DNA of 60,030 nt from Patescibacteria group bacterium (GTDB lineage: Bacteria > Patescibacteriota > Minisyncoccia > 2-02-FULL-40-12 > IGHO2-01-FULL-4-A): contig JBBTYI010000005.1 of the NCBI GenBank assembly GCA_038061865.1, forward strand, positions 1 through 60,030, written 5' to 3'. Numbering within the stretch: position 1 is the stretch's first letter; every line of letters begins with the position of its first letter. Below the pieces are notes generated by a model, which did no database searches, had not been told where the DNA came from, and was given only the letters and a program-made list of their open reading frames with translations. The translations under genes and the position numbers were made by a program. Positions 20,521 through 51,126 of the stretch are shown here, piece by piece.

Positions 20521-21540
20521 TTAGCTGTTTAATTCAGAATAAACCTCCAGGATGGTTTTAATCAACTCCTGTTTGGCTTCGGCGAAGGGCTTGTTGATCG
20601 ATCCGCCAGCGGCAGCTTTGTGTCCTCCGCCGTTTAGACGTCCCGTAATTTTGCTGACATCGTATTTTTCCCCGTCACGACTGCGTAGCGATACCCGACA
20701 AAACCCAGGCGTGAACTCAATTAGGGTGCCAGCAATCTGACAACCGCGAATGGAGCGCAAGCTAATCGAAACCCAGCCGCCCTCAGTGTGCTTTGCTTCA
20801 ATACCAGCTTTGGTCATTTGCTTGGCACTAATTGAGGCCAAACGAAGTTTGTTCTTAAAATAAGTCTCGTGGTTAGCTAACATCATTGCTTCAAATTTAA
20901 TCTCTTCTGGTTCGCGATTATTGCCTAATTCAGAAACAGCTCTACTGTAGTTAGGAGCGATAGCCAACAGATTAGCCGCTGCCGAAAATGTACCTGGATT
21001 AATCCCGGGATGGATAAAGCCACCCGTATCACCGTGCAAACCGATCAATAAATAAACCGCCATACTAGGAATGATCTTGACCGACCAAAGTTTAAATAAG
21101 TCGTAGAGGATTTGCGCGGTGGCAGGATAATTGGAGGTAATTAAGTTAACGTCGGCAAAGCCAGTATTACTGGGGTGATGGTCAATAATTATAGTCTTTA
21201 GGGTATTAGGAAAAATTACCTCACCCTTTTTTGAAATTTGGTTAAGTGCGCCAGTGTCCTGAATTAAAAATAAATCAAATTTGTTTAGATCAACTTCAAA
21301 AAAAATTTTAGGAACAATACTATTTACGCCTGGCAATATAGAAAAGGCAACCGGTACGGCGGAATCGCCTTGGATTAGAGTGACAGTTTTACCTAGTGAA
21401 CTTAGCCACTCAGTCATAGCTAAAGTGCTGCCAATACTGTTGGAATCCGGCTTGGGATGAAGATGGAGCAGGATGTTTTGGGCACCCTCAATCTCCGCCC
21501 GAATGAGCGGAGCGGCGACCTTGATGTCGGCGATAATCAT
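20521..21540 (-). CDS. DHH/DHHA1 family phosphoesterase (NrnA-like oligoribonuclease / pAp phosphatase)
   Basis: LHLHPKPDSNSIGS, the IIDHHPSN (DHH) motif, and C-terminal GGGHKAAAG (DHHA1). Confidence 0.85.
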   Translation of the reverse strand: MIIADIKVAAPLIRAEIEGAQNILLHLHPKPDSNSIGSTLAMTEWLSSLGKTVTLIQGDSAVPVAFSILPGVNSIVPKIFFEVDLNKFDLFLIQDTGALNQISKKGEVIFPNTLKTIIIDHHPSNTGFADVNLITSNYPATAQILYDLFKLWSVKIIPSMAVYLLIGLHGDTGGFIHPGINPGTFSAAANLLAIAPNYSRAVSELGNNREPEEIKFEAMMLANHETYFKNKLRLASISAKQMTKAGIEAKHTEGGWVSISLRSIRGCQIAGTLIEFTPGFCRVSLRSRDGEKYDVSKITGRLNGGGHKAAAGGSINKPFAEAKQELIKTILEVYSELNS

Positions 21541-21543
21541 TTG

Positions 21544-21616
21544 GGAGACCTAGGGGATTCGCACCCCTTCTGACAGGTCCACAACCTGTAGTGCTAACTG
21601 TTACACTAAGGTCTCC
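21544..21616 (-). tRNA. tRNA-His (anticodon GTG) with genome-encoded G-1 opposite C73
   Basis: My manual fold is G(-1) GAGACCT TA GTGT AACAGTTA GCAC T ACAGG TTGTGGA CCTGT CAGA AGGGG TGCGAAT CCCCT AGGTCTC C. All four stems pair. Confidence 0.9.
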
Positions 21617-21620
21617 ATCT

Positions 21621-22067
21621 TCAGTCTTTCAAGCTTAAACGTCTAGCGTAGCCCCAGTCAATACGCAGTTCTTTACCAATTGCCCTATAAGTTAAGCCCT
21701 TAATTCTCAAGGATTTTATATGTTTAATACGATCAGTTCTTGTTTTTTCTCTTAATAATTGTCTAGCCACCAGGAATTCTATCACAGGTAATGCCAATTC
21801 AACTTTTTCTTTTTTGACAATTAGATAGATAAGGATTTTGTTTAAAAAATCGCAGATTTGTCTTTGGCTGGCAATATAATAAACCCAACTATCTTTCCAG
21901 TGTTTTTTCCGTTTTTTAGGTTCAATAATAGAACCAGCACTAGCGAATTTTCGTATTTTTTCTAGCACTTCAAAATTCGTCTGTGCGATTGTTATACGAT
22001 ATCCTTTTGTGTGGCGAGTTATACTACCTTCCCCATCGAAGAAGCCAGCAATATAGGCCCAGTTCAT
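21621..22067 (-). CDS. free-standing single-motif LAGLIDADG homing-endonuclease-family protein with a C-terminal helix-turn-helix
   Basis: The N-terminal NWAYIAGFFDGEGSI is a LAGLIDADG motif. The C-terminal IKSLRIKGLTYRAIGKELRIDWGYARRL looks like a resolvase/sigma-r4-type HTH. The gene is visibly more AT-rich than its neighbours. Its stop is 4 nt from the tRNA-His 5' end. Confidence 0.8.
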   Translation of the reverse strand: MNWAYIAGFFDGEGSITRHTKGYRITIAQTNFEVLEKIRKFASAGSIIEPKKRKKHWKDSWVYYIASQRQICDFLNKILIYLIVKKEKVELALPVIEFLVARQLLREKTRTDRIKHIKSLRIKGLTYRAIGKELRIDWGYARRLSLKD

Positions 22068-22147
22068 CCTATAACACTAACATTTTTGTGGACATTTGAG
22101 TAGGGGCAGCAATCAATACTTGTCCACATTTAGGTCCTTCAACTAGT

Positions 22148-22582
22148 TCAGGGCAAGCACCCCGATATGAGATAAAGACTGCGAGCGGCTTGTTGAATTT
22201 CCTGAACTTGCTCGGTGGTTCTGGTTCTTTCTTCCACTGACAAATTAGTATTTTCCAAAAAGTCCAGGACCACCGTGTTACTGGTCATCACCGTGTATAA
22301 TTTCGGGCACAGTTCGGACTTTTGCTGGGCAAAGGAGCTGGATAAACCGATACCAAGATTGAGCAGGGGCTTATGCTCAAAAGCAAATTTGATCCGGTCT
22401 TCGTAAACCTGCGTCGCGGCCACGGCGGCGTCAGGGCCAGTGGATTTTTTAATTGCCTCGCGGATTTCGGTGCGCAGGGCTTCCACCTGCCGATTGCGAT
22501 AAATTGTTTGTGTCAGAACGCTGACTACCAAAATTCCCAAGCCAGCGGTTATTAAAAGCAGAGTTTTATTTACCTTCAGCAT
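22148..22582 (-). CDS. hypothetical membrane-anchored protein
   Basis: 144-aa ORF with an N-terminal TM segment (LLLITAGLGILVVSVL). I recognise no motif. Confidence 0.5.
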   Translation of the reverse strand: MLKVNKTLLLITAGLGILVVSVLTQTIYRNRQVEALRTEIREAIKKSTGPDAAVAATQVYEDRIKFAFEHKPLLNLGIGLSSSFAQQKSELCPKLYTVMTSNTVVLDFLENTNLSVEERTRTTEQVQEIQQAARSLYLISGCLP

Positions 22583-22604
22583 ACAGATTATTTTATCACA
22601 CTTG

Positions 22605-22676
22605 TCTCCCCGGGGGGAATCGAACCCTCATCTAGAGATTAGAAGTCTCTCATTTTATCCATTAAACTACGGGGAG
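22605..22676 (-). tRNA. tRNA-Arg (anticodon TCT)
   Basis: My manual fold is CTCCCCG TA GTTT AATGGATA AAAT G AGAGA CTTCTAA TCTCT AGAT GAGGG TTCGATT CCCCC CGGGGAG A. There is one A-C mismatch in the T stem. Confidence 0.85.
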
Positions 22677-22925: not shown

Positions 22926-23189
22926 ATGCATTATGTTTACGTATTTTTAAGTAAGAAGGATGATAAACTATACATCGGTTATACTAATGATCTTATCTCA
23001 AGGATCAAGGAACATAACACCGGCAAAGTTCTGGCAACAAAGAGCAGATTACCCATCAAACTTATTTATTACGAAGCGCATCTTGATGAACAAGAGGCTA
23101 GAGATCGTGAAAAATTTCTAAAGACCGGGTGGGGAAGAAGTTTTATTTTAACAAAACTCGCCAGAACTTTGCAGAAAGCAAAAATTTAG
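22926..23189 (+). CDS. small stand-alone GIY-YIG nuclease-domain protein (UPF0213/YhbQ-like)
   Basis: MHYVYVFLSKKDDKLYIGYTNDLISRIKEHN...REKFLK contains the GIY(-like YVY)...YIG motifs, then R and E. I chose the ATG at 22926; the upstream part of the track ORF overlaps tRNA-Gly. Confidence 0.8.
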   Translation: MHYVYVFLSKKDDKLYIGYTNDLISRIKEHNTGKVLATKSRLPIKLIYYEAHLDEQEARDREKFLKTGWGRSFILTKLARTLQKAKI

Positions 23190-50506: not shown

Positions 50507-50962
50507 TTATGCTATCTCCAGAATCTTATACTCCACCACTCCCCCCGGCGTTTTCACTTCCACTTCCTCGCCTTTTTTATGCCCGATAAAAGCGCTGCCC
50601 AGCGGCGACTCGTTGGAGATGAAACCTTGCGTCGGATCGGATTCGGCCGGACCGACAATGGTAAACCGATGTTCGCCCTGCGGCGATTTAACGCGGACGG
50701 TCGAACCGACTACGATAATATCGTGAGTATTGCCATTGCTTATGACGACGGCTTCTTTGATAATTTCTTCCAATTCAGCAATCCGCCCCTCGTTGAAACT
50801 TTGGGCTTCTTTGGCCTCAACGTACTCGGCGTTCTCCGACAGATCGCCCAGTTCTTTGGCAGCTAAAATCTTTCTGGTAATTTCCGTCCGGATTTGGCCT
50901 TTGCGTTCCTCCAGTTCTTTCTTCAATTTTCCCAAACCGTCGCGGCTAAGATATTGCGGCAT
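50507..50962 (-). CDS. greA: transcription elongation factor GreA
   Basis: KLKKELEERK...AKELGDLSENAEYVEAKEAQ...VSNESPLGSAFIGHKKGEEVEV. Confidence 0.95.
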   Translation of the reverse strand: MPQYLSRDGLGKLKKELEERKGQIRTEITRKILAAKELGDLSENAEYVEAKEAQSFNEGRIAELEEIIKEAVVISNGNTHDIIVVGSTVRVKSPQGEHRFTIVGPAESDPTQGFISNESPLGSAFIGHKKGEEVEVKTPGGVVEYKILEIA

Positions 50963-51126
50963 AATATTTAATCAAAGATTATAGCATAAGCGAACCATTT
51001 GACTATTTCAAGATGTGGACAACAAAAGAGCCAAAAGCGCAAAGTACAATTCCAGCTGTAAAATTAGCCAAGCATATGCCTGTTTAGTTTTACACTTTGC
51101 GTTTCAAGTTTGTTTTAAGCTTTAGG

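Follow-up and report, generated by a model that had tools for sequence, protein, structure and literature searches.

Homing endonucleases are best known from the introns and inteins of organelles, phages and archaea. The gene described here is free-standing: it encodes a small protein with a LAGLIDADG motif and a C-terminal helix-turn-helix (HTH), and lies directly upstream of the gene for tRNA-His at positions 21621-22067 (minus strand) of a stretch of 60,030 nucleotides from a Patescibacteria group bacterium (contig JBBTYI010000005.1 of assembly GCA_038061865.1; the whole analysed stretch is called the window in the following). We consider it probable that the gene is part of a free-standing homing-endonuclease cassette of ~0.5 kb, made up of a palindrome over a weak promoter, an I-CreI-type nuclease-HTH gene and, 4 nt further on, the sole tRNA-His gene. 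Apparently, this represents a known kind of element, the homing endonuclease gene, in an unusual and undescribed arrangement; full-text literature searches returned nothing on a bacterial tRNA-His-linked LAGLIDADG family.

The described enzymes that are closest in structure, I-CreI, I-MsoI, I-CvuI and I-Vdi141I, have in common with the window protein the fold, the acidic residue of the LAGLIDADG helix and the active-site Gln and Lys, and, like it, they have only one domain per chain, so that a homodimer acting on a palindrome is implied. Their genes lie in rRNA introns, and it is the insertion site of the intron that these enzymes cleave, whereas the window gene is free-standing beside a tRNA gene; moreover, the window protein has an extra long helix and an HTH, has a palindromic promoter site of its own and is ~20-24% identical to the members of this group. 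The regulator WhiA combines, as the window protein does, one or more LAGLIDADG domains with a C-terminal HTH, but it is a conserved housekeeping gene product with two degenerate domains that have lost the active-site residues, whereas the window protein is sporadic in distribution and the site in its only domain is intact. A parallel in genomic arrangement is provided by SegB of phage T4, for which we know of no tRNA-derived operator. SegB is a free-standing GIY-YIG enzyme in a tRNA cluster that recognises a motif of the T-psi-C stem-loop (PMC2330249) and takes adjacent tRNA genes with it during copying, a process named 'intronless homing' (PMC2330249; PMC2988022). The predicted cut of the window nuclease is likewise in the T arm; SegB differs in its GIY-YIG fold, in being encoded by a phage and not by a bacterial chromosome, and in not being locked to one tRNA species. 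I-TevI binds an operator that resembles its homing site and overlaps its own promoter, without cutting there (PMC2988022); it differs in being an intron-encoded monomeric GIY-YIG enzyme, and the operator role of the window site is a deduction, the site being apparently a fossil of the invaded gene. Finally, the LAGLIDADG enzymes of rRNA insertions in the candidate phyla radiation (I-ShaI) are single-domain proteins that were shown to be homodimeric and to cut their own insertion site (PMC11270868). They come from the same phylum-level group as the host of the window and are encoded within 16S/23S rRNA gene insertions; tRNA genes are not mentioned in that paper.

Curated-model scores, core fold and active-site residues all place the window protein in the LAGLIDADG superfamily. 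It scored above the Pfam cut-offs for PF14528 (LAGLIDADG_3; E 7.8e-9, 36.1 bits vs 22.5) and PF14527 (LAGLIDADG_WhiA; E 2.9e-6, 27.8 bits vs 23.2) and just below that for PF00961 (LAGLIDADG_1; 22.5 bits vs 23.1). The AlphaFold2 model, which was built on 35 family members and has a mean predicted local distance difference test score (pLDDT) of 94, shows an alpha-beta-beta-alpha-beta-beta-alpha core (residues 3-81), followed by a helix of 37 residues (86-122) and two short helices (127-134 and 138-146) that complete an HTH-like end. The best Foldseek matches were I-Vdi141I, I-CreI, I-CvuI and I-MsoI (E 1e-7 to 1e-5, probability 1.0), with superpositions over ~112 aligned columns at a root mean square deviation of 2.3-3.4 and a template modelling (TM) score of about 0.55. 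The single-motif LAGLIDADG protein with C-terminal HTH that had been read from the letters alone in a first-pass annotation is thus what Pfam and the structural model recovered. E13, Q29 and K85 are the counterparts of D20, Q47 and K98 of I-CreI, as judged from alignments of sequences and of profiles. E13 and Q29 are invariant and K85 is found in at least 90% of the 35 aligned members, among which W3, Y5, the AGFFDGEG motif, K52, R53, W57 and W61 and the HTH residues R128, I130 and R142 are conserved as well. The comparison with I-CreI that had been proposed as a check on the catalytic residues therefore revealed no loss and, judged by residue conservation, the nuclease active site of the window protein is intact. 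The presence of one LAGLIDADG domain per chain implies a homodimer. By the same single domain, and with a score of 19 bits against a cut-off of 44.1 for TIGR00647, the protein falls outside WhiA proper.

The 148-aa open reading frame (ORF; protein start MNWAYIAGFFDGEGS in the ORF list of the window) is single-copy in the genome (529 kb in 21 contigs, 89.5% complete, Patescibacteria-type). On the minus strand the junction between its stop codon and tRNA-His reads ...TGA AG ATG GAGACC..., so that the stop codon ends at 21621, four bases come next and G-1 is at 21616; the ATG of a DHH/DHHA1 phosphoesterase gene (20521-21540) lies 2-3 nt past the end of the tRNA. The tRNA-His gene is the only His gene among the 38 tRNAs of the assembly and, because of this and because a gap of 4 nt is too small for a promoter, is presumably transcribed through the cassette. 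An intron, intein or split gene was not found at the locus: the flanking tRNA-His and tRNA-Arg are intact (ARAGORN), and the ORF has its own start and stop and is neither embedded in an intron nor placed in-frame in a host protein. The GC (guanine plus cytosine) content of the ORF is 0.34-0.35, as compared with about 0.45-0.51 on either side; a second measure gave 0.354 vs 0.475 for 6.6 kb flanks. On all these points, i.e. the 4 nt to G-1, the roughly 3 nt to the DHH start, the lack of an intron or intein context and the AT-richness that had been judged by eye (35% vs 47% GC), the first-pass annotation and the present results agree.

A large protein collection contained at least 242 relatives, of about 148 aa and with 48-60% identity, nearly all from Patescibacteria or from unlabelled metagenomes. 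A scan of one genome per GTDB species yielded a set of 38 close loci, and in 36 of these tRNA-His(GTG) was found by ARAGORN on the same strand and directly downstream; for a 37th (L040) it was found with a covariance model. The gap between stop codon and tRNA-His ranges from -23 to +27 nt in the intact copies of the family, where a negative gap means that the ORF runs into the D arm of the tRNA, which accounts for the '...SSIG' protein tails of several ORFs in the alignment. The upstream neighbour is variable (often tRNA-Arg(TCT) at 61-90 nt, else tRNA-Phe, -Pro, -Lys, -Arg(CCG) or no tRNA), and the constant partner is therefore tRNA-His and not the tRNA cluster. The sole clear exception to the tRNA-His rule is L048, a metagenome-assembled genome labelled Bacillota, with a protein that is 43% identical, a gene GC of 0.49 within a context of 0.64 and no tRNA-His nearby. 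We define the family here as the tRNA-His-linked LAGLIDADG-HTH proteins of Patescibacteria, by four features that are all present in the window: a length of ~148 aa, the sequence signature AGFFDGEG...HWKDSW...YR.IG...ARR, the downstream tRNA-His and an upstream TGTGG-N31-CCACA.

The last of these features corresponds to an 8-bp inverted repeat that the first-pass annotation had noted just upstream of the gene and had let end at 22127; the repeat is present, its right end is one base further, at 22128, and, beyond what had been noted, it is a conserved element of the family. The arms are TGTGGACA (22087-22094) and TGTCCACA (22121-22128), and on the gene strand the palindrome reads TGTGGACA (22128-22121), 26 nt, TGTCCACA (22094-22087), with the left arm starting 60 nt before the ATG. 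No other TGTGG-N28-32-CCACA is present in the 529 kb of the genome. Throughout the family the 130 nt upstream of each ORF contain TGTGG(T/A)T, ~25 nt and (A)CCACA, and in most members an extended -10 box (TGnTAnnnT) is located past the palindrome, 5-9 nt before the ATG. The -10-like hexamer of the window suggests, from its position in the sequence, a near-leaderless message. The core GTGG-N20-40-CCAC was recovered in 25 of 35 loci, where 0.3 were expected from shuffled sequences (at most 3 in 500 shuffles), and when the variants GTGA and TCAC were allowed (GTG[GA]-N29-32-[CT]CAC) the number was 29 of 37, at -51 to -64 and with a spacing of exactly N31 in 17. The base that flanks the core covaries on both arms (T:A in 17 loci, C:G in 3, G:C in 1), and arm complementarity outside the core of 5-6 bp is about random. 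A hairpin or terminator was considered and rejected: the near-random pairing outside the core indicates a conserved sequence and not a hairpin, and a terminator scan was empty at this position.

The arms are not identical in all loci. Four loci have TCAC as the right arm (L024, L035, L042 and L045), two of which (L035 and L042) also have GTGA as the left arm, and in L046 the arms were read by eye as GTGAT/ATCAC. The predicted recognition helix of the nuclease is DHGY(V/I)RR in L035, L045 and L046, which form one clade of the tree, and DRGYIRR in L042; L024 keeps the usual D(W/F)GYARR. The arm variants may thus go with a changed HTH helix, an association in these sequences that is suggestive only because there are very few independent events.

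A potential origin of the palindrome is found in the tRNA itself. In tRNA-His genes GTGG (the anticodon plus G37, positions 34-37) and the CCAC of the acceptor (positions 69-72) are 31 nt apart, which equals the spacing of the palindrome, and the centre of this dyad is tRNA position 53. Five loci (L021, L045, L018, L016 and L047) contain a 5' half-copy of tRNA-His with an 'ATG-G' leader, the anticodon loop of which forms the left arm, and these half-copies end at a constant -56/-57 from the ATG of the nuclease gene. L021 contains a full-length pseudo-tRNA-His (23.7 bits with the covariance model) that ends at the right arm. In L045 (3840-4000) two tRNA-His 5' stubs precede one nuclease gene: the distal stub shares 87% identity with the resident tRNA-His, and the proximal stub has a different D-arm type (a foreign tRNA-His type), which looks in sequence as if it had been brought in with the cassette. 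The closest two phage relatives are found in tRNA clusters with stubs that are broken exactly at position 53/54: L173 has a tRNA-Asp 5' stub ending at the T-stem together with a complete tRNA-Asp, and L174 a complete tRNA-Asp together with a tRNA 3' stub that starts at T54, directly past the stop codon. Both loci (L173:2331-2913 and L174:2872-3452) are on IMG/VR contigs of ~100 kb, and their nucleases are 37-44% identical to the window protein. The tRNA-His of the window has TCTC instead of CCAC in the 3' strand of its acceptor (positions 69-72) and is therefore without the right half-site.

The distribution of the family is sporadic. It was found in 3 of 61 genomes of the order (the window counted), in 2 of 9 species of family f4 and in 1 of 400 other genomes that were sampled evenly from the phylum. 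The other two carriers in the order (G046 and G051, both of f4) have the gene order tRNA-Arg(TCT), nuclease gene, tRNA-His. In the relatives tRNA-His was located with a covariance model (R1), because a BLAST-type DNA search with the 74-nt tRNA-His was too insensitive (2 of 61 genomes); with the model, it was found in all 40 relatives searched. At 29 loci without the nuclease gene, tRNA-His is preceded by tRNA-Arg(TCT) at 23, 44, 169 or 279 nt, by tRNA-Pro at 18-22 nt, by tRNA-Arg(TCG) at 3-4 nt, or by nothing. The empty site in the window's own family consists of tRNA-Arg(TCT), 23-44 nt and tRNA-His, as compared with a spacing of 988 nt in the window. The comparison of relatives that the first-pass annotation had called for thus retrieved both occupied and empty Arg-His sites: the gene is absent from many relatives, and its presence varies at a fixed site across the order and within f4, a comparison that lies above the genus level. 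The JGI metagenomes, queried with the neighbouring DHH protein, gave best matches of 40-56% identity that were not syntenic with tRNA-His. In G034, which belongs to the same genus as the carrier G051, the contig breaks off ~40 nt past tRNA-Arg(TCT) (C2 end, L130) and tRNA-His was not found; the break, at the would-be start of a cassette, may reflect population polymorphism.

Three of the 38 copies are decayed, two by frameshift (L050 and L053) and one by an internal deletion of ~50 residues (L051), and all three are still situated before tRNA-His. Two genome pairs have nucleases that resemble each other far more closely than the syntenic genes around them do (86% vs 36-60% identity in L029/L036; 91% vs 60-69% in L016/L018), and in several pairs the DNA similarity is restricted to the part from the upstream site through the 3' end of tRNA-His. 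The decayed copies display the degeneration cycle of a homing endonuclease gene, and the two genome pairs bear signs of its recent horizontal spread. The protein tree was uninformative in this respect because it is star-like and the NCBI labels with which it was compared are unreliable. The low GC content that had been noted for the window gene is a property of the whole family, since the ORF is below its flanks in 34 of 35 loci (means of 0.356 and 0.443). We rejected AT-richness as an indication of recent transfer, since the difference from the flanks does not vary between hosts; a GC content that is low family-wide and follows the host does not argue for a recent arrival. A history of invasion, a certain amount of horizontal spread, prolonged residence and, in the end, decay and loss is what would be expected of a homing endonuclease gene and not of a housekeeping regulator. 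At the level of the family, the sequence evidence supports a mobile homing endonuclease over a domesticated one. Of the two roles that the first-pass annotation had offered, the free-standing homing endonuclease is accordingly supported by active-site residues, sporadic distribution, empty sites, decayed copies and the two genome pairs, with the correction that the link is to tRNA-His and not, as had been supposed, to the tRNA cluster.

In the mechanism that we propose, the predicted homodimer would cut tRNA-His loci that are without the gene, and repair of the break from the carrier chromosome would copy the nuclease gene and the linked tRNA-His together, by 'intronless homing'. The palindrome would be a probable remnant of a formerly invaded tRNA-His, its arms being derived from the anticodon loop and the acceptor 3' strand, and would have been kept as a putative site at which the dimer binds with its two HTHs. 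With the HTHs on the arms and the nuclease core over the decayed centre, the protein could shut its own promoter without cutting (autorepression); from these sequences we infer that the palindrome is an operator derived from the former target. The natural target would comprise positions of about 32-73 of tRNA-His (the 3' two-thirds), with the cut near 53/54 in the T arm, and its place before an essential single-copy tRNA would make the cassette hard to silence or to delete imprecisely. A further-reaching version, which we hold to be possible but doubtful, is that the dimer, with its two HTHs, reads the TGTGG of the anticodon loop and the CCAC of the acceptor strand and cuts the T arm at 53/54, and that the cassette spreads by destroying the resident tRNA-His while supplying a less cleavable copy. 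If true, bacteria with minimal genomes would harbour a natural 'cleave-and-rescue' drive that acts on a tRNA gene which is both essential and single-copy.

Several observations weigh against such a mobile, self-regulated cassette. In the window no significant tRNA-His stub was found beyond the repeat arm (local alignment, p 0.46; covariance model), and a consensus scan of the window did not recover a consensus sigma-70 promoter. The carriers keep an intact tRNA-His, which in 5 of 35 even contains the full GTGG-N29-32-CCAC, so that self-protection needs explanation; the same motif is present in 10 of 29 non-carriers, a depletion that is weak and confounded by relatedness. In genome pairs other than the two mentioned, the nuclease diverges like its neighbours or faster, and the GC content of the gene tracks that of the host (r = 0.83); these two observations point to long vertical residence. 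The window protein is on a long branch, with a best identity of 57-60%, and the arrival of this copy is undated. Lastly, an intergenic TGTCCACA occurs upstream of the promoter of another gene, greA, and a host factor could therefore read the boxes.

This last point leads to an alternative for the repeat only, in which the TGTCCACA boxes are sites of a host factor, e.g. DnaA-box-like, and not an operator read by the nuclease. The left arm in the window agrees with TTATCCACA in 8 of 9 positions and the right arm in 7 of 9, and the third intergenic box (51014-51021) is just upstream of the -35/-10 of greA (50507-50962, minus strand). The family gives a different picture: of the 29 arms on either side, no more than 1 (right) and 3 (left) conform to the relaxed DnaA-box consensus TTWTNCACA, A and T are equally frequent at position 4, and a dimer of the nuclease itself accounts better for the fixed N31 spacing of the dyad and for the arm variants that track the HTH helix. 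We consider a host-factor site unlikely on these grounds. As a separate observation, the TGTCCACA octamer occurs 5 times in the window, where 0.66 are expected.

The gene could also be a stranded relic, i.e. the descendant of a homing endonuclease that is no longer mobile in this lineage and has been retained because the essential tRNA-His is transcribed across it, so that only precise deletions are tolerated. The long terminal branch without a known near relative, the GC content that was ameliorated in step with the host, a promoter that is weak or absent by consensus, the tRNA stub eroded to the repeat arm and the single-copy tRNA-His with a gap that leaves no space for a promoter of its own are all in line with this. 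Against a relic speak the intact ORF, in which all family-invariant residues, catalytic and HTH residues included, are kept, the different appearance of truly decayed copies elsewhere, and the difficulty of explaining purifying selection on a nuclease site that has no activity; we regard a relic as quite improbable. The remaining alternative, a domesticated WhiA-like regulator (a dimerising half-WhiA) that would control the tRNA-His/tRNA operon via the palindrome with its nuclease site unused, and which in the form of a regulator or maturase was the second role offered by the first-pass annotation, is very unlikely and not favoured by us: the LAGLIDADG plus C-terminal HTH architecture, the weak matches to PF14527 and TIGR00647, the overlap of the conserved palindrome with the promoter region and the invariant position before one tRNA would suit it, but the family is present in ~1% or fewer of the sampled Patescibacteria and in so few genomes of the order, frameshifted and deleted copies exist, the acidic residue, Gln and Lys of the active site are invariant or nearly so, the NCBIfam WhiA score is far under its cut-off and, in two genome pairs, conservation of the nuclease exceeds that of the genes next to it.

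The homing-endonuclease cassette, which remains the reading that we prefer, is embedded in a neighbourhood with some further features; the coordinates are collected in the table below. Between tRNA-Arg(TCT) and the cassette is an orphan ORF for which no Pfam family was found and no homologue among 60 relatives; a distance of 19 nt separates its stop codon from the left palindrome arm, and it may be cargo of the cassette. On the opposite strand, the window contains tRNA-Pro and tRNA-Gly (ARAGORN). A small GIY-YIG ORF (PF01541, E 2.5e-15) is located at 22926-23189 on the plus strand and starts ~14 nt past tRNA-Gly(TCC), and is thus a second nuclease-like gene directly beside a tRNA in the same island. 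The tRNA-His of the window has a non-canonical T loop (TGCGAAT, with G at the expected U55) and a D loop without GG, and tRNA-His of this type was found in carriers (L022, L043, L049 and L052) as well as non-carriers (L114 and L126). The bases A(-3)T(-2)G(-1) before tRNA-His form an 'ATG' (21616-21618 in the window) that is present in 28 of 29 relatives without the nuclease gene (L098-L127) and at nearly all carrier loci; it looks like a lineage-wide rule, perhaps for RNase P to retain G-1. This 'ATG' was also considered as the end of the element and rejected, given its presence in the gene-less genomes.

Table. Features of the tRNA-His locus in the window, in window coordinates.
Feature	Position	Strand	Remark
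tRNA-Arg(TCT), direct upstream neighbour of tRNA-His in relatives	22604..22676	-	ARAGORN; intact
Orphan ORF, 144 aa, between tRNA-Arg(TCT) and cassette	22148..22582	-	N-terminal hydrophobic stretch; host-like GC
Palindromic operator-like site, 42 bp	22087..22128	-	unique in genome
Stretch from right arm to ATG, with -10-like TAGTGT six bases before ATG	22068..22086	-	weak
LAGLIDADG-HTH gene, 148 aa	21621..22067	-	Pfam, AlphaFold2, Foldseek, family alignment
Protein parts: nuclease core (residues 1-82), long helix (86-122), HTH (about 112-146)	21621..22067	-	
LAGLIDADG motif AGFFDGEG (residues 7-14)	22026..22049	-	invariant in 35 aligned members
Spacer AGAT, 4 nt, from stop codon to G-1	21617..21620	-	final AT is the host's conserved -3/-2 tRNA-His leader
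tRNA-His(GTG) with encoded G-1	21543..21616 (ARAGORN 21543-21615)	-	intact

Taken on its own, the window has the more modest meaning of one intact family member, in a genome without close relatives by which its arrival could be dated. The family as a whole would be a free-standing family of bacterial chromosomes that is tied to one essential tRNA, and would extend 'intronless homing' beyond phages; it carries tRNA-His along and seems to be self-regulated through a fossil of its target. This is a possible reason for the many nuclease genes and tRNA stubs in the tRNA clusters of Patescibacteria. The compact LAGLIDADG-HTH scaffolds (148 aa), for which a long recognition site (about 43 bp) can be predicted, may also be of interest for enzyme engineers.

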